From a phage, in the sequence record PV357169.1: a DNA stretch of 43,293 nucleotides; one strand, given 5' to 3'. Shown here one piece after another: positions 7,453-17,469 of the stretch (within the stretch, counting starts at the first letter, position 1; each line of letters begins with the position of its first letter). Made by a program: the position numbers and the translations under genes. The notes below the pieces were generated by a model, which was not told the origin of the DNA, did not search any database, and was given only the letters and a program-made list of their open reading frames with translations.

Positions 7453-7648
7453 AATTATCACGTACAAAATGCCGCCTAAGAGTATTGTGGTTGGCATTCC
7501 GTTCACTTGGGGATCATGCAGCTTTTGGGTTATAAAGGTAGAGGGTGGCTACATATACCGTCTGGACGATGGACGGAAGGTGGATGTACCCGAAAGAGAC
7601 ATTTTATTGTGTGGAATAGTATACGCTAACAGAATCGAGATTAAGTAA
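7445..7648 (+). CDS. Hypothetical protein (67 aa)
   Basis: AAGGGGA RBS; overlapping stop/start with neighbours. Confidence 0.5.
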   Translation: MHKIITYKMPPKSIVVGIPFTWGSCSFWVIKVEGGYIYRLDDGRKVDVPERDILLCGIVYANRIEIK

Positions 7649-8439
7649 TGGACCAGCCCTGGCTTAGAGCGTGCAAGCGCCTGGCCGTGGGGCAGAGGGC
7701 ACGCTTTCGGTGCTGCGGCAGGGACTCCGCCGGGGTGCTCTATAATAACCCGGATGCCTGGGAATACTATTGCCACCGCTGCAAACAGGTAGGCAAGGAG
7801 CGCAAGCAGTACCAGCGCATACAGTTACAGGAAGAGCCGAGGGTGCAGCCCTCTGCACCTGCAGATGCAATTTGCATTAGCCAAGCGCCTGCAGAAACGC
7901 AGAGTTTTATTTACGGATTCCTTGCTTCAAAGGGAATCATGCCTGAAATGGTGGGGGATGCAGAATGGAGCAAAGAGAAACAGCGGATAATCTTCCGTGT
8001 CGGAAGCGCTGCTCTGGGCCGTGCAGTACATGCTCGGCAGCAACCGAAGTGGGTAATGTACGGCCAGCCAATAGCTTTCGCTGTCGCGGAACCTGCCGTA
8101 GCACCGGCTGTAGCTGCGGGCGCTCCTCTAAAGGTCGTGCTCACAGAGGACTTACTCTCAGCCCTGAAGATACAGCACGCAGTTACGAGCTACAGTGCGT
8201 TGAACGTGCAGGCTATAGCTATGCTGGGTACACGCTTGCCCACGCAGCTAAGGGCCTGGCTGATTCAGAATCGCCCGGAAGTGATTCTAATGTTGGACAA
8301 TGACCCGGCAGGACATGCTGGGGTAGCGGCAACACGCCGGGCACTGCGCCCGTTCATGCAGTGCCGAGAACACTACTTCGCTGCGGATCCTAAGGACGCA
8401 GAAATCAAAGAGATACTGGAGGCATTAACTTGGACTTAA
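7648..8439 (+). CDS. DNA primase (zinc-ribbon + TOPRIM)
   Basis: CCGRDSAG...YYCHRCKQ zinc-binding pattern; acidic TOPRIM motifs LTEDLL and MLDNDPAG. Confidence 0.7.
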   Translation: MDQPWLRACKRLAVGQRARFRCCGRDSAGVLYNNPDAWEYYCHRCKQVGKERKQYQRIQLQEEPRVQPSAPADAICISQAPAETQSFIYGFLASKGIMPEMVGDAEWSKEKQRIIFRVGSAALGRAVHARQQPKWVMYGQPIAFAVAEPAVAPAVAAGAPLKVVLTEDLLSALKIQHAVTSYSALNVQAIAMLGTRLPTQLRAWLIQNRPEVILMLDNDPAGHAGVAATRRALRPFMQCREHYFAADPKDAEIKEILEALTWT

Positions 8440-9710
8440 TAGTTGTGCGTGCAATGTGCACGCAGAAGGTCTGGAACCGACTGCGAGAGCAGATACCCAA
8501 GTCTATGCTTGCGCCGGACACCTCGAACCTGCTGGACTGGGTAGGGCTGTACTGGAACACGTACCCAGAGCACCAAGAGGTGCAGTGGGATGCGATGCAG
8601 AGTATGCTCAACCTCCGGGCCGGGCATCTATCCCGTGAAGAGCGGGTGATTATGGATGAGCTTATGCGGGGAGTACAAGCCGTACCACAGGATTCTGTGG
8701 TGGGGATTGTGCAGACCCTGAATGAGTTGGCATACAGCGGAGAGGTTGCAGCGCTCACGCAGCGCTACCAAGACGGTGAGGAGGTTGATTATCTACTGGA
8801 GATGAAGCACCTCCAGCGCAAGTACGGGGATGGTGCTGCTGTTCATGATTCGCTACTAGAGTGGGAGAGCGGAAGTGTTGATGAGATACTTGCCGCGACT
8901 GATGAAAGTGGTGGTCTTAAACTGGGCGTATTTGAGCAACTCTCTAATAGCATCCGCGGGCTTCGCGGTGGTGATTGTATTGCTGTGGCTGCCCCTGTTG
9001 ATTCTGGTAAAACTAGCCTACTCGCTGCTATTGCTGTGGACTTTGCTAAGCAGATGCAGCAGCAACCGGAGGTGTACGGGGATCGTCCGATTCTATGGCT
9101 GGTTAATGAAGGCCCGGCGACGCGCACTGTGCCGAGGGTATACCAAGCGGCGCTGCATTGGACTCTGGCTGAGATTAAGGACAGGCACAGTAAGCAAGAG
9201 TTTGTGCCGGCCTATTTGGAGAAAGTAGGTAGGGCTGACCGCATCCGTATCAAGGCGGCACACTCTCTTACTATGGCTCAAATCTCTACGCTAATGGAGG
9301 AGATGCGCCCGGCGGTAATCATCATAGATATGGTAGCTAACATCCGTGGTGGTACGATGGAGAGCGAACACCAGAACCTAGAGGCGAAGTGGCAGGAGCT
9401 GCGAATCCTGGGGTGTGAGAATGACTGTGCCGTTATTGGTACTATGCAGCTTTCACTCGAAGGTTATAACCTGCTGTTTCCACCGCTCACAGCAATGAAG
9501 CAGAGTAAGATTGGTGTGCAAGGTGCTTTGGATTTAGCAATTATGATGGGGTGCTTGGACAGGAACGAGCAGCCGCATATGCAAAACATTCGTGGTATCA
9601 GTACGCCGAAGAATAAGATGGCGCTATCGGGTAAGGAATCGCTACTGCAATTCGAGGTAGCATTCGACCCAGGTAGATGCCGATTTAACGAAGGGCAGAT
9701 TAACAAGTGA
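8430..9710 (+). CDS. Replicative DNA helicase (DnaB/T7 gp4 C-terminal-like)
   Basis: Walker A AAPVDSGKTSLL; directly follows the primase; probable TTG start with GGAGG RBS. Confidence 0.75.
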   Translation: MDLIVVRAMCTQKVWNRLREQIPKSMLAPDTSNLLDWVGLYWNTYPEHQEVQWDAMQSMLNLRAGHLSREERVIMDELMRGVQAVPQDSVVGIVQTLNELAYSGEVAALTQRYQDGEEVDYLLEMKHLQRKYGDGAAVHDSLLEWESGSVDEILAATDESGGLKLGVFEQLSNSIRGLRGGDCIAVAAPVDSGKTSLLAAIAVDFAKQMQQQPEVYGDRPILWLVNEGPATRTVPRVYQAALHWTLAEIKDRHSKQEFVPAYLEKVGRADRIRIKAAHSLTMAQISTLMEEMRPAVIIIDMVANIRGGTMESEHQNLEAKWQELRILGCENDCAVIGTMQLSLEGYNLLFPPLTAMKQSKIGVQGALDLAIMMGCLDRNEQPHMQNIRGISTPKNKMALSGKESLLQFEVAFDPGRCRFNEGQINK

Positions 9711-9871: not shown

Positions 9872-10019
9872 ACCGTCCGACATTAACTATCTCGACGAAG
9901 AGGTAATTAAGGCGTACGCTGCATCTGTGGGTACTTTCAGCATACGGCCCGTGCTAATTAGCAGCCGGCTGATTGTGCACTTGGCTGTCAATAAGGCGCG
10001 GAGGATTAATTGGAGATGA
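9864..10019 (+). CDS. Hypothetical protein (51 aa)
   Basis: Internal ATG of track ORF 9831-10019 with GGAGAAGG RBS. Confidence 0.35.
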   Translation: MLKPSDINYLDEEVIKAYAASVGTFSIRPVLISSRLIVHLAVNKARRINWR

Positions 10020-10465
10020 CAGATTGTATCGACCACGGGCAGAAGGGAAGCACTTGCCGAGGAAAGTGCGCTGGATATGGCCGCTCCAGATTTGATGGAG
10101 AGACAACTGGAAGCCACCGCAAAGCGTATTGTATAGCCCACAACTTGAAGCTGAGTGATATCGCGGGACTTGTAGTCCGGCATTCGTGTGACAATCCTCG
10201 GTGCATAAATCCGGAGCACCTGCTACTAGGGACTTCTAGTGATAATATGCAGGACCGAAATAAAGGTGCGCGTAATTTGCTGGGCAGCCGCAACCCTGCT
10301 GCCAGACTTACCCCAGAAGACGTGCACAGTATACGAGAAGCATATGCTGGCGGTGAGACCCAGGTATCTATAGCGAGACGCTTCGGGATAAGTCAAGGAT
10401 ACATATCTAATATCATAAAGGGGAGGGTATGGAATGAGCAGAAGCATCCTGATAACGGATTATGA
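10010..10465 (+). CDS. HNH homing endonuclease (copy 1)
   Basis: HSCDNPRCINPEHLLLGT HNH core; paralog of 13155-13589; 3' end overlaps the DNA polymerase start by 32 nt. Confidence 0.8.
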   Translation: MEMTDCIDHGQKGSTCRGKCAGYGRSRFDGETTGSHRKAYCIAHNLKLSDIAGLVVRHSCDNPRCINPEHLLLGTSSDNMQDRNKGARNLLGSRNPAARLTPEDVHSIREAYAGGETQVSIARRFGISQGYISNIIKGRVWNEQKHPDNGL

Positions 10466-12773
10466 GACGCAAAATCACCCATATTACGGTAGTGTTGCTT
10501 CCCCGTACTGTCCGGATAATTACATCGTAGAATCAGCGTGGCGTATTGACCGCACGCACGATGACGGTACGGTAGAAGTAGGCCCCGTAGAGAGTGTACG
10601 GTATAACAGTCGCGCGCACTTTGAAGCGGCACCTGTATCAGAATGGCTCCCAATACCAGCTGACTGTTGGCTGATTGTGGCCCACAACGCCGCATATGAG
10701 ATTAGCTGGTTCCTAACCTTTGCGCGCGCCGAGTTTGAGGCCTTCCTAAAGCGGGGAGGTCGCGTATTCTGTACGATGCATTCTGAGTACATCGCCTCGG
10801 ACTTTCAGAGTATGTATCCGTCACTGGACGAGACAGCTCCTAAGTACGGCGGTACGCACAAAGTAGACGGTGTTAAGATTCTATGGGAGCAAGGTGTATT
10901 AACCTCCCAGATCGACCCTATACTATTGCACGACTACCTAGTTAACGGGGATATACCGAACACGGCCCTGTGCTTCTACGGCCAGTGCGGTATCTTTGCA
11001 GAGCGCAACCAAATGCAGTACGTATGGGAGCGCATGGATGCCTTACTGGCCTGGGCCTACTGCGAATGGTTCGGTCTGTTCGTGAATATGCCGATTGCTC
11101 GCAAGAACCAAGAAGAGCAGGAACAGCGTATACTGGAGATTAAGAAGGAGCTGCAGCAGTATATCCCCAAGGACTTGCCGGAGACGCTAGATTTCAACTT
11201 CGGTTCTGACTTTCATATGTCTGCGCTGGTGTATGGCGGCCCTATCAAGTACCGCAAGAAGGTGCCCTACGACCCGCCGCAATACGTCAAGGCGGACTAC
11301 TGGCAAGTAGGCGACACTTGGGTTGCTGTGGATGATATGCCCGCTCCCCCTGGGGCGACTACATACAAGGCCGGGAAGAACAAGGGCTTACCAAAAGTCT
11401 TCCGCATAGATACAGCGGAAGAGAAACTCAAATGGGAAGAGGACCTCTACTTCTGCCCAGGCCTGGTTAACATCCAAGAACTGCCCGAGGTACTCCGAGA
11501 GAAGTATGCTGAGCGTGGAGAGTTCAGGCAAGCCCGGAATCTGCAGGATGGGACACCAATCTACAGCACCAGTACTGATGCTATGGAAGCGCTAGCCCGT
11601 CACGGGTTCGAGTTCTGTCGATTGGTGAACGAGCTAGGTGCTCTGGAGAAGGACACAGGAACCTACTATCTACGAACGGAGTACAACGAAGATGGGTCAG
11701 TTAAAAAGACCTCGGGCATGCTTCAATACGTCATACCTCAGAACCCTGATGGTTCAGGTATTATCCACCACCGTCTTAACACCTGTGCCACCGTCACCGG
11801 GCGACTGTCAGGTTCTAACCCGAATCTCCAGAATCTACCGCGCGATGGGACGAGCCGGGTTAAACAGATGTTCACCTCTCGTTTCGGAGAATCTGGTCGC
11901 ATCACTGAGGTTGACTATTCGGCCCTGGAAGTGGTTATGTCTTGTGTTCACACTGGAGACCTTAAACTACTGGGGCTACTGCAGTCCGGCACGGACATGC
12001 ACTGTTACCGACTAGCATTTAAGGAGAACAAAACCTACGAAGAGATGTACGACCTGTGCCATAACGCTGACGGGCCAGACTACAAGTACTGGAAGCAGCA
12101 GCGTACGGACATTAAGCCCCCTAGTTTTGCTGCGCAGTATGGTGCTACGGCTAAGGGTATCGCCTTTGCTACCGGATGTACCGTAGAGTATGCACAGGCG
12201 TTCCTGGATAACGAGGCTAAGCTGTTCCCAACAACCATAGGATTCCGCGCTGTTGTCAAGGAAGAAGTAGAGCGTACCGGGGCAGCTGGACGCATTTACC
12301 GGGAGCAAGCTGATGATGGTAGTTATCGTATCTACCGAATTGGTACCTGGACCAGCCCAGCAGGTGCCCGCTACAGCTTCCGTCAGAAGGAGCAGTGGAA
12401 GGAAGTAGTCCCTGGCCAGCGCAAGCAGAAGGTGATGGACTACAAGGAAACCGAGATGGCTAACTACTGGTGTCAAGGTGAGGCGTTCTTCTTGATGGCA
12501 GTCGCAGCCGGTATGGTTCTGCGTGCGATGCTGGCACGTGACTGGTTCGACAATCAGGTGTGCTTGATTACGAACGTACACGATGCATTGTATCTTGACA
12601 GTGCCAATCCAGAGGTAGGCAGAGAAGCGAGCCTGTTAGTTAAGCAGTGCATGGAAGACGCACCTAAGCGTATCCACCAGCTATGGCCTAACTACGGTAT
12701 CATTGGGCAGGTCCCGTTCCCAGCGGAAGCTGAAATGGGTACAAGCATGTACAGTAAGGAGAAAGTAGAATGA
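10434..12773 (+). CDS. DNA polymerase, family A (T7 gp5-like)
   Basis: Motif A EVDYSALE, motif B K...FAAQYG, motif C VHDALYLD; N-terminal exonuclease-like region. Confidence 0.9.
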   Translation: MSRSILITDYETQNHPYYGSVASPYCPDNYIVESAWRIDRTHDDGTVEVGPVESVRYNSRAHFEAAPVSEWLPIPADCWLIVAHNAAYEISWFLTFARAEFEAFLKRGGRVFCTMHSEYIASDFQSMYPSLDETAPKYGGTHKVDGVKILWEQGVLTSQIDPILLHDYLVNGDIPNTALCFYGQCGIFAERNQMQYVWERMDALLAWAYCEWFGLFVNMPIARKNQEEQEQRILEIKKELQQYIPKDLPETLDFNFGSDFHMSALVYGGPIKYRKKVPYDPPQYVKADYWQVGDTWVAVDDMPAPPGATTYKAGKNKGLPKVFRIDTAEEKLKWEEDLYFCPGLVNIQELPEVLREKYAERGEFRQARNLQDGTPIYSTSTDAMEALARHGFEFCRLVNELGALEKDTGTYYLRTEYNEDGSVKKTSGMLQYVIPQNPDGSGIIHHRLNTCATVTGRLSGSNPNLQNLPRDGTSRVKQMFTSRFGESGRITEVDYSALEVVMSCVHTGDLKLLGLLQSGTDMHCYRLAFKENKTYEEMYDLCHNADGPDYKYWKQQRTDIKPPSFAAQYGATAKGIAFATGCTVEYAQAFLDNEAKLFPTTIGFRAVVKEEVERTGAAGRIYREQADDGSYRIYRIGTWTSPAGARYSFRQKEQWKEVVPGQRKQKVMDYKETEMANYWCQGEAFFLMAVAAGMVLRAMLARDWFDNQVCLITNVHDALYLDSANPEVGREASLLVKQCMEDAPKRIHQLWPNYGIIGQVPFPAEAEMGTSMYSKEKVE

Positions 12774-13154: not shown

Positions 13155-13589
13155 ATGTCGATGTGCATTGACCATGGGTATACCAAATGCCTTAATAAGA
13201 ACGGGTACCGCCGGGCATGGTATAAGCCAACTAAACAATTGGAGCTTCTGCACCGGGTGGTGTACGCTGAGCATAACGGGATAGACATAAGGGCAATGGC
13301 CGGGCTGTCTGTTAGACACACCTGCGATAACCCTAGGTGCATTAATCCAGAGCACTTAGTGCTAGGGACGCACTTGGATAATATGAATGACCGTGCGGAA
13401 CGTGGAAGGAACCCAGATGTACGGGGAGAGCGAAACCCAAAAGCACTGCTATCTTGGGACGCCGTGCGGGATATTAGGGCCAACTATGTCCCGTACAAGA
13501 AAGGTATGCGGCAACACTTTGCTAATAAGTATGGTGTGGGTGTACATGTAATCAGTGACGTGATAAGTAACAGGAGCTGGAATGCCTAA
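13155..13589 (+). CDS. HNH homing endonuclease (copy 2)
   Basis: RHTCDNPRCINPEHLVLGT HNH core; AAGAGGA RBS. Confidence 0.8.
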   Translation: MSMCIDHGYTKCLNKNGYRRAWYKPTKQLELLHRVVYAEHNGIDIRAMAGLSVRHTCDNPRCINPEHLVLGTHLDNMNDRAERGRNPDVRGERNPKALLSWDAVRDIRANYVPYKKGMRQHFANKYGVGVHVISDVISNRSWNA

Positions 13590-14562
13590 GTTAAACACAA
13601 TCAAGCTATTCACCAAAGAGCAGCACGTAGATATCCTAAGCAAGCACAGCTCTAACGTGGACGCTGCAGCCGCCTACAACAAGCTGGCAGGACTAGCTGA
13701 GCCGGTGGTGTACCGCCAGATGGTGAAGTACTGGCGCAGCATCTTCCTAGACCACAATGGTAGCAAGGGTAAGGCAGTATCTCACATGAAGGAGGCACTA
13801 AAGCTCATACAGCCTAGCCCCACTGATGACATCGGTAAAACCTTCGTACCGGAAGTATGCCACCGTATTCTCGTTGTCGGTGATCTGCATGCCCCCTATA
13901 CTCACGTAGATGCCATGGACTTCCTAAAAAGTGTGCGGGATGAATACTGTCCTGACATGGTGGTACAGGTTGGTGATGAGACGGACGGCCACGCTATATC
14001 ATTCCACGAAAGTAACCCGAACCTAGACAGTGCCGGGGTGGAACTGGAGAAAGCTAAGCTAGTGCTGGAGGAGCTGCATGAACTATTCCCGAACCTTCTT
14101 GTTTGCGATTCCAATCACGGGAGTCTTGTATATCGCCGCGCCAAGGCTCACGGCTTACCAGTTCAATTTATTAAGCGATACCGGGACATTCTATTCCCCG
14201 AGCATAGTGCTCCAGGTTGGTCGTGGGCCGATGCTTGGGTGCTTAGTACACCTCTCGGGCCCGTCCGGTTTCAACATCAGGTTAGCGGCGACTTCATGCT
14301 TAACGCGAGCCACGAGAGAACGTCGCTCGTTTTGGGGCATGAACATGGGCGCTTCGAAGTACAATATGCGGCTTCTTCTACGGCACTGTATTTTGGCGCA
14401 TATGCAGGGTGCCTGATTGACCGCAAGAGCATGGCCTTTGCTTACGGCAGACTCACCCGTAAGAAACCAATCCTGGGTGTACTGGTAATCACGGAGGGTT
14501 GTCCCCAGTTAATTCCGATGTTACTTGACGACAATGGTCGTTGGGTTGGTCGTTCTAAATAA
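13582..14562 (+). CDS. Calcineurin-like metallophosphoesterase (putative nuclease/phosphatase)
   Basis: Signature order GDLHAP, GDETDGH, DSNHG, GHEHG. Confidence 0.7.
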   Translation: MPKLNTIKLFTKEQHVDILSKHSSNVDAAAAYNKLAGLAEPVVYRQMVKYWRSIFLDHNGSKGKAVSHMKEALKLIQPSPTDDIGKTFVPEVCHRILVVGDLHAPYTHVDAMDFLKSVRDEYCPDMVVQVGDETDGHAISFHESNPNLDSAGVELEKAKLVLEELHELFPNLLVCDSNHGSLVYRRAKAHGLPVQFIKRYRDILFPEHSAPGWSWADAWVLSTPLGPVRFQHQVSGDFMLNASHERTSLVLGHEHGRFEVQYAASSTALYFGAYAGCLIDRKSMAFAYGRLTRKKPILGVLVITEGCPQLIPMLLDDNGRWVGRSK

Positions 14563-14575
14563 TATAGAGGTGATG

Positions 14576-14743
14576 ATGAAAATGGAAATCTGTTCTATAC
14601 TGGGTCTTATCTTTGTAACTCTGAAACTGACCGGCGTTGTCGCCTGGTCTTGGTTGTGGGTGCTGCTCCCGTTCTGGGGGCCTTTAGTGATCTGCCTGTT
14701 AGTAGTGCTCATTCTATTGGGTCTTAAGGCCTTAGCCAGCTAA
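14576..14743 (+). CDS. Small membrane protein, two predicted TM helices (~55 aa)
   Basis: Strongly hydrophobic ORF; several in-frame starts (14570-14582) after a GAGG RBS. Confidence 0.4.
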   Translation: MKMEICSILGLIFVTLKLTGVVAWSWLWVLLPFWGPLVICLLVVLILLGLKALAS

Positions 14744-14794
14744 GCCCTGCATCTGCACGTAAATATTATTTGAACTAAACGAGGACATAATTAT

Positions 14795-15655
14795 ATGACT
14801 ATGAATGCACTGGATACTCTGAACTCCCTGGTTGCTGCCGCGATTGAAACCCAAGAAGTTGATATGACTGAGACTGCCCAGGGTGGTGCGTACGAAGATG
14901 TACTGCTGCCGAAGGGTGAGTACTACGGTTACTTTACTGAGTACGTGGAAATTGGTAAGCGCCTGCCGACTAAAGGTGGTAAGCCTACCGGTAAGCCTGC
15001 CGCGGCGAACGTTCGCATCGGGATTGTGGTGTACGGCCCGAACGGTGAGGTGAAGCGTATCCGTCCGTATCCGATGACTATCAGCAACTTTGAGCGTGCG
15101 GGCTTCAAGAAGTTCTTCGACAAGCTCAACTATGATGGTAGCATTAAGCACGCTGCGCAGCGACTGGGACAGGCGTTTGTGTTCCCGGTGGACGAGCACA
15201 CCAGCGCAGCGGGTAAGAAGTCCAACATCGTAGACCTCGCAGCAATCCGTCCGATTCCTAAGTTCGACCCAAATACCGGCGAGCCAATTAAAATGCCTGA
15301 GCTGGATGCTTCCGAGATTAAGCTGTTCTTGTGGAACAATCCGACCAAAGAAACCTGGGATAGCTTGTATATCGAAGGGACCAAGGATGATGGTAAGAGT
15401 AAAAACTGGATTCAGGAAGACATGTACAAGGCTGTTGACTTCCCAGGCAGTGCGTTGGATATTATGCTGAATGCTGGTTCGGTTCCGAGTCCTCAGTCTA
15501 TGCAGGCCCCGGCTGCTCCTGCAGCCCCCGCAGCCCCCGCAGCCCCAGCCACCCCGGCTGCGCCCACTGCACCAGCGGCACCGAGTGCTCCAGTAGCACC
15601 AGCAGCACCAGTGGCTCCAGCGGCTCCTGTAGCGCCTGCTGCACCGCAAGCCTAA
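14795..15655 (+). CDS. Hypothetical protein with C-terminal (PAAPA)n low-complexity tail
   Basis: GAGGA RBS; residues ~240-286 are almost pure Pro/Ala repeats. Confidence 0.65.
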   Translation: MTMNALDTLNSLVAAAIETQEVDMTETAQGGAYEDVLLPKGEYYGYFTEYVEIGKRLPTKGGKPTGKPAAANVRIGIVVYGPNGEVKRIRPYPMTISNFERAGFKKFFDKLNYDGSIKHAAQRLGQAFVFPVDEHTSAAGKKSNIVDLAAIRPIPKFDPNTGEPIKMPELDASEIKLFLWNNPTKETWDSLYIEGTKDDGKSKNWIQEDMYKAVDFPGSALDIMLNAGSVPSPQSMQAPAAPAAPAAPAAPATPAAPTAPAAPSAPVAPAAPVAPAAPVAPAAPQA

Positions 15656-15707
15656 GCAACCCTATTACTAACTAATACGGCCCCGCCTGGGGCCTTAGAG
15701 GAAGCCT

Positions 15708-15962
15708 ATGAATATCATCAAGATTCTCACCAAACCCCTAAGTGCAGCTTATACAGCAGAAGCTAAACGTGCTGACGCTAAGGCACAAATGAATGAACAG
15801 TTGTCGATTAAGTTTGCAGATGATGCAGTGCGCCTGGCGGCACAATCCGAGGCACGAGTAGAAGACTCCAAACACAGCAAAGCTGAAGCAGCTAAGTGCG
15901 CTGAACAGGCTGATAAACTGCGCGCTAAGCGTGATGAAGTAGTAAACTTTCTGGGGGTATGA
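15708..15962 (+). CDS. Hypothetical protein (84 aa, Ala/Lys-rich)
   Basis: AGAGGA RBS; follows a GC hairpin (GGCCCC-GCCT-GGGGCC) at ~15680-15695. Confidence 0.55.
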   Translation: MNIIKILTKPLSAAYTAEAKRADAKAQMNEQLSIKFADDAVRLAAQSEARVEDSKHSKAEAAKCAEQADKLRAKRDEVVNFLGV

Positions 15963-15965
15963 TTG

Positions 15966-16343
15966 ATGGATAAAGTATTAGACGCATACAAGAATCTGGC
16001 TAAAGCTGTAGCTTCAGTGGTATATGACTCGGCGCATGATTATGTTGTAGATGATGATGAGTTGGGCACACTCTATGATGCGCTGGATAAACTGGCTGCC
16101 CTATACGGCATGGATCTGGAGCTGGCCGCTACCGCCTTCAAGGAACACAACGACCTGGCGGCACATGCCGATAAGTTGAAGGGGGACGATCTGGCAGTTA
16201 TCCGCATCGTAGGTACTCTCAGTATCGGGTTGGCGGAGATTGGTTCCTGTATCTACGACGTGGACCAGAGTCTGCGTACGCCAGAAGTAATCGGGGATAT
16301 GCTTGGTACCGTGTTGGTACTGTCTGAGTTGGAGTCGTGCTGA
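15966..16343 (+). CDS. Hypothetical acidic protein (~125 aa)
   Basis: ATG 15966 overlaps the upstream stop. Confidence 0.55.
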   Translation: MDKVLDAYKNLAKAVASVVYDSAHDYVVDDDELGTLYDALDKLAALYGMDLELAATAFKEHNDLAAHADKLKGDDLAVIRIVGTLSIGLAEIGSCIYDVDQSLRTPEVIGDMLGTVLVLSELESC

Positions 16344-16501
16344 TGCTATACTTACATCGTGCAATTTACGTAGTTTTGATTCTCCCACTAATCCCCTTGG
16401 CGGGACTCTGCTACCTGTGCGACAAGCTCACCAAGGCGAAGTGGGCTGAACGTTGGGTTAACTGGGCCGACAAGAAGGCTCGAGACATCACGGGGCGCTA
16501 A
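16343..16501 (+). CDS. Small hydrophobic protein (52 aa)
   Basis: ATG overlaps the upstream TGA and its stop overlaps the next ATG (TAATG); below the ORF-track cutoff. Confidence 0.35.
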   Translation: MLYLHRAIYVVLILPLIPLAGLCYLCDKLTKAKWAERWVNWADKKARDITGR

Positions 16502-17469
16502 TGATTATCAACGGGGTTGACTTGTCCCAGCTCGGGGAGCAGCTAGCCCCGCAGAACTCTGGGAAGATTCTGCTATATGACGCAGATTTTTGCGTGTACA
16601 AAGCCGCCGCTACAGTGAAACGTTTAGATACGGCGATACGTCGCTTCTATCAGCTAGTGCTTGAGGACATGTTCTTGGTGGGCTGCTCGGAAGCAGTGGC
16701 GTATCTTACTCCTGCTGGTTGTGCTAAGTGTCTGCGTTGGCACCTACCCACAGCTAAGCCGTACCAGGGGCAGCGAGCTAATCGGCAGGAGCTACCACTG
16801 AAGGCACCTTTGAAGCGGCACCTGATTGATAATCCGGACCAGTATTCTGAGCAAGGTATCCAAGTAGTTAGTAGCGACTTCTTCGAGGCGGATGATCTAT
16901 TCATAATGGACTCATACGCTTTCGGTGAGCGCGGTATACTGATGTCACAGGACAAGGACTCCTGGCTCAGCCCTATGGCCCGGTTCGATATCCCGACCGG
17001 AACCGTGTGGCCTGCCTTGAATAACCCCTTCGGCTGGATTAAGTGGGATGATACCCAGGCTATGCCAGTACGGGCGCATGGCACTAAGTTCTTCTGGTGG
17101 CAGATGCTAGCAGGGGATGACGCAGATAACGTCAAAGGCATCACATTGCTTGATGGGAAGCTCTGTGGGAAGCGAACGGCCTTTGATGCTATCTACCCTA
17201 TTACCTCAGAGCAGGACGCCGCAGAATTCGTTGTAGCGGCTTATGCTCGAAACAACCAAGACGTACTCGCAGAGGCTGAATGCCTGTGGCTGAGGCGCTC
17301 CCAGTCAGATTCAGCGTACCTGTATCTGATGTCACTGTTGACTACTCCCAGTCTGCGTGACTGGGTGCACTCGCTGCACGAGTACCATAAACAGCACATA
17401 CAGTGGATACAGGAGCACCCAGACAATGGCGAAGATGACTGCGAAGGAAATGAGCCTGCGGGCGATTGA
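16501..17469 (+). CDS. 5'-3' exonuclease (FEN/PIN-like, T7 gp6-like)
   Basis: Acidic clusters LLYDADFCVYKAA, FEADDLF, GDDADNVKG. Confidence 0.7.
   Translation: MIINGVDLSQLGEQLAPQNSGKILLYDADFCVYKAAATVKRLDTAIRRFYQLVLEDMFLVGCSEAVAYLTPAGCAKCLRWHLPTAKPYQGQRANRQELPLKAPLKRHLIDNPDQYSEQGIQVVSSDFFEADDLFIMDSYAFGERGILMSQDKDSWLSPMARFDIPTGTVWPALNNPFGWIKWDDTQAMPVRAHGTKFFWWQMLAGDDADNVKGITLLDGKLCGKRTAFDAIYPITSEQDAAEFVVAAYARNNQDVLAEAECLWLRRSQSDSAYLYLMSLLTTPSLRDWVHSLHEYHKQHIQWIQEHPDNGEDDCEGNEPAGD

Follow-up and report, generated by a model that had tools for sequence, protein, structure and literature searches.

What kind of protein ends in almost nothing but proline and alanine, and what might such an end do? 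This question is raised by a gene at positions 14795-15655 (plus strand, stop codon included) of phage sequence record PV357169.1, a stretch of 43,293 nucleotides which was analysed as a whole, is called the window here and belongs to a Klebsiella phage of the Drulisvirus group (KP34-like; Autographiviridae, Slopekvirinae). As judged from the list of open reading frames (ORFs), the translation and homology, the gene encodes a 286-amino-acid (aa) replication-module protein (PHROG 862) which is a homolog of Gp21 of phage LUZ19. Our answer, which we regard as reasonably probable, is that the last part of the gene encodes an intrinsically disordered C-terminal tail of a core phiKMV/KP34-type replication protein, most probably one which binds single-stranded DNA (an SSB). 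The tail is probably a clade-specific, charge-free form of the disordered tail found on a widespread, unnamed replication protein for which binding to single-stranded DNA (ssDNA) is predicted.

A preliminary description of this DNA, made from its letters alone, had noted a nearly pure Pro/Ala end on the product, and this was confirmed: residues 238-286 are 86% Pro or Ala (33% Pro, 53% Ala), they include no charged residue, and no run of Ala is longer than two. Counted from residue 237, the composition is 26 Ala, 16 Pro, 3 Val, 2 Thr, 2 Gln and 1 Ser. The tail peptide, APAAPAAPAAPAAPATPAAPTAPAAPSAPVAPAAPVAPAAPVAPAAPQA, extends from Ala238 (nucleotide (nt) 15506) to Ala286 (nt 15652) and is followed by the stop codon at 15653-15655; the stretch is thus present as described, but its start had been placed at 15508, two bases inside codon 238. 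In a six-frame scan of the window it was the sole 30-aa stretch with ≥ 70% Pro plus Ala. The 16 prolines stand at residues 239, 242 and so on to 284, with a period of three which is nowhere broken, and given the composition of the tail the chance of such exact spacing is ~ 1e−12. The repeating unit is therefore not (PAAPA)n, as had been proposed, and is instead the tripeptide x-Ala-Pro (x = A, V, T, S or Q; n = 16), with Pro present in 16/16 units and Ala in 15/16. On the basis of composition, the period of three, the coil predicted by AlphaFold and length polymorphism, the element is described as an uncharged (x-Ala-Pro)16 tail, residues 238-286, at 15506-15652 (plus strand), ending in ...AAPQA. 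A collagen-like triple helix was considered and rejected, as the tail contains no Gly and Pro occupies the period-3 position; the match to a collagen peptide in the PDB is compositional.

The DNA of the tail has a GC content of 73%, compared to 51% for the window, and Tandem Repeats Finder detected imperfect periods of 9, 18 and 27 nt with 73-88% matches, in agreement with its earlier description as a GC-rich imperfect DNA repeat. Only about three units are near-perfect at the DNA level (GCAGCCCCC; 15521-15547, plus strand). This most homogeneous part of the repeat, which reads GCAGCCCCC, GCAGCCCCC, GCAGCCCCA and was delimited from the codon listing, the period-9 array and pairwise DNA alignment, contains a 9-base-pair (bp) indel relative to Klebsiella phage KPV811. 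Outside it, the tail codons include all four for Ala and all four for Pro, and because synonymous codons vary in this way the Ala-Pro pattern is held at the protein level, with selection acting on the peptide, and not by recent homogenisation of the DNA. Two other ORFs which cover the repeat were both read as shadows of the sense frame: an antisense ORF (14732-15649, 305 aa), which is Arg/Cys/Trp-rich opposite the repeat, and a +1-frame ORF (15471-15596, 41 aa). A search of 14400-16000 against Rfam matched no RNA family.

No other part of the protein changes nearly as fast as the tail. The region from 14000 to 16500 is 98.5% identical to KPV811 and is matched by 257 phage records. The KPV811 ortholog is 100% identical to residues 1-237 (237-aa N-terminal query), and its tail differs by a single clean in-frame 9-bp indel, equivalent to one Ala-Ala-Pro, which falls within the most perfect repeat units, and by two substitutions. 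Tail length was counted in residues past the anchor GSALDIML, in the full-length members of three clusters at ≥ 90% identity. Most of these tails have 34, 43, 46, 49, 52, 55, 58, 61 (the window) or 64 aa, a series of three-residue steps which corresponds to 7-17 units and from which a few members depart. No close relative in these clusters has fewer than 7 units, and the ends of the array are nearly fixed (start MQAPAAP, end AAPQA). Where the 218-aa domains are identical, tail length differs in 5/7 pairs, the differences (3-18 residues) all being multiples of three, and in the remaining 2/7 pairs the order of the units differs. Since lengths shift in 9-nt units between otherwise identical proteins, these sequence comparisons fit copy-number change by replication slippage or unequal recombination in the 9-nt repeat, and the earlier expectation that copy number varies by slippage is upheld by the indel, the three-residue steps and the identical-domain pairs. 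In Klebsiella virus 2019KP1, protein KP1_19 (P0091) reads ...APAAPAAPATLLLRQHRQHRLRQWLPW...KPKPKL, with the Pro/Ala repeat frame-shifted and continuing past the normal stop; the shift may be genuine, or it may stem from an error made in sequencing the GC-rich repeat.

The protein which carries this tail matches phrog_862 (E = 2.4e−83; PHROG 862 is labelled ‘unknown function’) and LUZ19 Gp21 (34% identity, E = 5e−45, BLASTP). A profile of the N-terminal domain retrieved 1138 clusters (50% identity), of which 514 scored E ≤ 1e−30, and by tblastn the family was found in 898 of 50,697 phage records, with phages of Klebsiella, Pseudomonas (phiKMV group), Acinetobacter, Pectobacterium, Vibrio and Ralstonia as the leading host groups. 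No Pfam model matched the protein or 55 relatives, noise only being returned (DUF2963 at E = 0.027). Its assignment to a replication module, already made in the preliminary description, is supported by the genes upstream, which encode a primase (7648-8439), a DnaB-like helicase (8430-9710), an HNH endonuclease, the DNA polymerase (10434-12773), a second HNH endonuclease and a metallophosphoesterase, and downstream, which encode a 5′-3′ exonuclease (16501-17469), endonuclease VII, a nucleotide kinase and a T7-type RNA polymerase. The slot between DNA polymerase and exonuclease is common to the window, phikF77, LUZ19 and a metagenomic contig (L006), and the scan of 20 ORFs in the 2.2-21.7 kilobase region turned up no further SSB.

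The most informative evidence on whether this protein is an SSB comes from the tails of its relatives, as read from their sequences. Nearly all of the full-length family members inspected have a low-complexity tail; following a GS(A/P)L...LL motif it spans 37-124 aa in 116 homologs, and tails of ~ 18-160 aa were seen in 123/148 representatives with the anchor motif found. Among 264 members, the tails are neutral and Pro-rich like that of the window (n = 120), end in ...D(A/P)LAALGL (n = 54), end in ...DFGLP(S/T)L (n = 10), end in the SSB tip [DE][DE][IV]PF (n = 16; ELDDDIPF, DFDDDIPF, GDDDIPF, DDEIPF, NDEVPF, DDIPY) or belong to none of these four classes (n = 64). Certain tails bear two motifs, and others an internal D(I/V)PPF. 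A member with the tip DFDDDIPF (contig L006) lies directly after DNA polymerase and ahead of an endonuclease VII gene, which is the same slot as in the window. The motif-tipped relatives include P0102, P0167, P0254, P0273, P0281, P0300 and P0301, and the LGL-type ends are loosely reminiscent of C-terminal clamp-binding motifs. The window protein ends in ...APAAPQA and has no acidic tip.

An ssDNA-binding fold had been suggested for the N-terminal domain, and structure prediction gives it circumstantial support. AlphaFold2 was used to build a full model (55 homologs) and a core-only model (150 homologs). The full model has a mean confidence score (pLDDT) of 85, with the core above 90, and the core-only model (residues 41-146) reaches 96.3. 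The full model begins with an N-terminal helix and a segment of low confidence, which are followed by a barrel with strands in OB order, a helical subdomain and a tail which is coil (DSSP; pLDDT 49-82). In a Foldseek fold search of the PDB, the named type which recurred most often among the top-ranking matches was that of OB-fold ssDNA binders (PriB, mitochondrial SSB, SsbB, Rim1 and gene V protein). In BFVD, a collection of predicted viral structures, four DUF669-annotated models matched (E = 7e−6 to 8e−5, TM-score (target) 0.44-0.53), and there were strong model matches to uncharacterised podophage proteins. DUF669/N4-type proteins are described as highly diverged OB-fold SSBs with acidic C-terminal tails, in phages without any other SSB (PMC4889955, PMC5928155), and that of phage HK620 binds ssDNA in vitro (PMC5928155). 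The suggested fold thus stands as an OB-like topology which matches DUF669 models at ~ 1e−5 to 1e−4, whereas solved SSBs were matched only at E ≥ 0.008 and neither sequence nor profile searches linked the protein to a known SSB family. LUZ19 Gp21 is also among the most abundant late-early/middle proteins of its phage (PMC3604761). Because the SSB slot is otherwise vacant, the protein is abundant, its core is OB-like and relatives carry SSB tips, we call it a probable SSB.

A number of results weigh against this reading. The Foldseek matches in the PDB were non-significant (E = 0.008-0.3, never 0.001; TM-score 0.3-0.45), the core-only model gave no better PDB fold matches (best mitochondrial SSB, E = 0.06), and T7 gp2.5 (1JE5) was not among the top 50 PDB fold matches. 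Using hhalign, the probability was 0.05-0.12% against T7 gp2.5 and 0.1% against a 30-sequence alignment of HK620-type DUF669 proteins, and the HK620 SSB alone gave no link. A DUF669 Pfam match was obtained in 0/55 members at E ≤ 1, no Pfam SSB model matched the protein or its 55 relatives, and profile searches of the PDB returned no SSB chain and chance matches at most. Our search of the literature on Drulisvirus and phiKMV SSBs found no functional study and no ssDNA-binding assay for the family. A single copy of LUZ19 Gp21 halts the growth of P. aeruginosa at once and cuts transcription and translation by 20-25% with DNA synthesis unchanged, and its authors assigned no function (PMC3604761). 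The window tail is without the acidic tip which defines SSB tails. Furthermore, pLDDT climbs from ~ 50 to 71-82 over the last ~ 25 residues (~ 262-286, nt 15581-15652), which in such a model is atypical for pure disorder and might stem either from a regular polyproline-II prediction or from a contact with the core. It should also be noted that the role as a spacer or bristle, discussed below, is one which we only infer. Considering both sides, we put the identification of the protein as the phage’s SSB, with a predicted binding to DNA, a little above even.

The closest known counterpart is LUZ19 Gp21 (phiKMV-group ORF21; PHA02030), which shares a homologous N-terminal region of ~ 230 aa, the same slot after DNA polymerase and immediately ahead of exonuclease and endonuclease VII, and a long C-terminal tail which is likewise Ala/Val/Pro-rich. 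The phiKMV-type tail differs in being ~ 100 aa long, richer in Val and Gln and slightly acidic, with only short runs of period three, whereas the Drulisvirus tail is shorter, free of charge and strictly (x-Ala-Pro)n. T7 gp2.5, the replication SSB of another Autographiviridae phage, carries a functional tail at the C-terminus of its OB core, but this tail is acidic and ends in Phe, and the gene position is other than that in the window. The resemblance to E. coli-type SSBs lies in a folded core, here predicted to be DNA-binding-like, which is followed by a disordered, Pro-containing tail of 40-60 aa, and several family relatives share the ...DDDIPF end of the E. coli-type tip MDFDDDIPF. In contrast to these SSBs, the window protein has in addition a helix at its N-terminus and a helical subdomain which is conserved, and its tail has neither the acidic tip nor the Gly/Gln-rich composition. 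The HK620 SSB ends in ...NDYPPF, resembling the D[IV]PPF motifs of some family relatives; the likeness of the window protein to DUF669 SSBs is one of fold, to predicted models only, and the DUF669 tails are acidic.

For the tail itself, a comparison can be made with synthetic and natural Pro/Ala chains. Synthetic Pro/Ala polymers with 25-35% Pro are expanded, highly solvated random chains with polyproline-II character, described as ‘PEG-like’ (PMC5813227, PMC3715784). PAS polymers (PASylation) are uncharged and consist of Ala and about 35% Pro, matching the composition of the tail; they differ in being engineered and 200-600 residues long, whereas the phage tail occurs naturally, its repeat comprising 21-51 residues among close relatives. 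The (Pro-Ala)7 segment of myosin essential light chain, which forms a rigid cylinder (cited in PMC5813227), is comparable in physico-chemical terms only as an extended, non-globular Ala-Pro arm, and differs in its period of two, its higher Pro content, its greater stiffness and its place on an unrelated protein.

The preliminary description had regarded the stretch as a flexible linker. Flexibility is in keeping with the AlphaFold coil and with the composition of Pro/Ala polymers (PMC5813227), but the stretch is a terminal tail and not a linker, since it has no sequence after it and lacks the acidic tip. With ~ 33% Pro, ~ 53% Ala and no charge, and by analogy with the synthetic polymers, the tail would be expected to behave as a PEG-like, highly solvated random chain with local polyproline-II structure. 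On a DNA-bound protein which coats DNA densely it could act as an entropic spacer or bristle. Such a bristle might keep an abundant protein soluble and tune spacing, cooperativity or the access of partners on the coated ssDNA. This would be the spacer role ascribed to the disordered linker of bacterial (E. coli) SSB, here without the acidic tip which recruits partners. The exact length of such a tail would be loosely constrained, with 7-17 units tolerated.

Other explanations of the tail were considered. Each pair of prolines spaced by three constitutes a PxxP motif, so that the tail could be a multivalent docking element in which 15 overlapping PxxP motifs on a polyproline-II chain bind OB/SH3-like folds, either in neighbouring copies or in replisome partners (polymerase, helicase), and replace the acidic tip as recruiter. 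The tails of relatives hold short linear motifs (DDDIPF, DALAALGL, DFGLPSL) and so serve as interaction platforms, and strong conservation of Ala-Pro with a variable x would also be in line with docking. We nevertheless consider it improbable: in measurements on E. coli SSB the PxxP-containing linker added nothing to partner binding (PMC7145534), a further study presents the PxxP mode as a proposal and the tip as critical for RecG (PMC10164576), and unit number varies 2.4-fold (7-17) between phages which are nearly identical, which is hard to reconcile with a defined binding register. Length hypervariability even between identical domains, the freedom of the x position and the frameshift in one deposited genome (2019KP1, P0091) could indicate a functionless, slippage-prone GC-rich repeat which is tolerated at the end of a gene because its loss is not selected. 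The 2019KP1 frameshift may, however, be a sequencing error in the GC-rich repeat, and the boundaries of the array are nearly fixed. A purely neutral ‘junk’ tail is unlikely, because C-terminal low-complexity tails are kept in nearly all full-length members inspected across the family, close relatives retain at least 7 units, and Pro and Ala are preserved through many synonymous changes, which would not be expected of neutral DNA; we therefore give this explanation little weight.

The effects of LUZ19 Gp21, with growth arrest and lowered transcription and translation while replication is unaffected (PMC3604761), and the lack of significant similarity to any solved SSB are also what would be seen if the protein were a host-shutoff or regulatory factor rather than an SSB, with a tail that serves that role. 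The position in the replication module is, however, conserved across genera, 16 members have canonical SSB tips, the OB-like core has matches to the DUF669 fold, and high abundance suits a protein which coats DNA stoichiometrically. The toxicity of an over-expressed foreign ssDNA-binding protein would in any case be unsurprising, and we find a host-shutoff role highly doubtful. We therefore retain the disordered tail of a probable SSB as the preferred reading. A bolder extension of it, which we think quite unlikely, is that phages of the phiKMV/KP34 type have their long-missing SSB in the Gp21 family and that Drulisvirus has swapped a near-universal acidic tip for a charge-free Pro/Ala polymer with a length which changes faster than the remainder of the protein. 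If this were true, replisome coupling would be independent of the tip, and the tail could be a stealth or steric device which avoids the host SSB interactome or SSB-sensing defence systems; it could also set the spacing and condensation of coated ssDNA. The variation in length would then be adaptive and not neutral.

The gene is carried by hundreds of podophages of Klebsiella, Pseudomonas and Acinetobacter which are candidates for therapy, and in these it is labelled ‘hypothetical’ or wrongly named. In GenBank we found the names ‘hypothetical’, ‘Fe-S oxidoreductase’, ‘oxidoreductase’, ‘(putative) large tegument protein’ and, once, ‘5′-3′ exonuclease’, whereas two recent records name the product ‘single strand DNA binding protein’. 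The names oxidoreductase, tegument protein and 5′-3′ exonuclease are not supported. ‘Fe-S oxidoreductase’, the annotation in KPV811, has no supporting domain and the protein is without cysteine, while the label ‘large tegument protein’ can be attributed to the low-complexity match which the Pro/Ala tail produces: a PDB sequence search gave low-complexity matches only (AKAP14, inulosucrase, a collagen peptide and herpesvirus large tegument protein). The misannotated records include KPV811, phiKpS2, PWKp2/7, SAA231 and KpV2883. Recognition of the protein as a probable SSB would fill the vacant SSB slot in the replication module and mend this annotation.

The family would also provide a natural comparison set for the function of SSB tails, with four kinds of tail seen in it: the acidic DDDIPF tip, the DALAALGL tip, the DFGLPSL tip and the charge-free Pro-rich repeat, which is strictly x-Ala-Pro in the Drulisvirus group. 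The repeat itself is a practical, fast-evolving length marker which separates near-identical Drulisvirus isolates, and errors of assembly or frameshift are likely to fall within it. Of greater interest than the repeat are two by-products of the analysis, the family-wide picture of modular tails, some of them SSB-tipped, and the annotation errors.

The remaining parts of the gene (all on the plus strand) can be placed as follows. A Shine-Dalgarno-like GAGGA (14781-14785), seen in the sequence, lies 9 nt ahead of the ATG at 14795. The AlphaFold secondary structure and pLDDT place the N-terminal helix at residues 5-19 (14807-14851), and it is followed at residues 20-40 by a segment of low pLDDT with a conserved VDMT..GG motif, in which D23 and G31 are almost invariant in the family alignment. 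The OB-like beta-barrel core (residues 41-146, 14915-15232) is modelled as three strands, helices and two strands with pLDDT > 90. Model helices and conserved columns define the C-terminal helical subdomain (residues 176-227, 15320-15475; FLWNNPTKETWDSL ... SKNWIQE ... GSAL), which is the best-conserved part of the family, with F178, P183, W188, L191, N204, Q207, G218, S219 and L221 invariant. In the translation, the folded domain is joined to the repeat by the junction GSVPSPQSMQ (residues 228-237, 15476-15505), and among close relatives the sequence NAGSVPSP(Q/A)(S/A)MQ is almost constant at this point.

Beyond the stop codon, the 52-nt spacer before the next gene contains a GC hairpin with a perfect 6-bp stem (GGCCCC-GCCT-GGGGCC; 15679-15694, plus strand), which starts 24 nt past the stop of the tail gene, precedes the ATG of the next gene at 15708 and is identical in KPV811. 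It has no U-run downstream on the plus strand, a pattern scan giving a terminator-like site on the minus strand only, and for this reason it does not qualify as a classical intrinsic terminator. Its role might be that of a pause or termination site for the phage polymerase, or of a site of RNA processing.

Two HNH endonuclease ORFs lie near the DNA polymerase gene. One of these (10010-10465) overlaps the start of the polymerase gene. The other (13155-13589), between the polymerase region and the metallophosphoesterase gene, is absent from KPV811; identity between the window and KPV811 breaks at ~ 13147 and returns at the start of the gene which follows, so that from the sequence comparison it looks like a recent homing-endonuclease insertion. 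The ORF directly upstream of the tail gene (14525-14743) encodes a strongly hydrophobic product of 72 aa (phrog_1374, unknown function), and in phage AttikonH1 the corresponding gene bears the annotation of a signal-peptide/transmembrane protein, which makes it an odd presence inside a replication module. In LUZ19, a phage-specific promoter is annotated immediately upstream of gp21 (L008 1414-1433), and the equivalent in the window is the spacer at 14744-14794.

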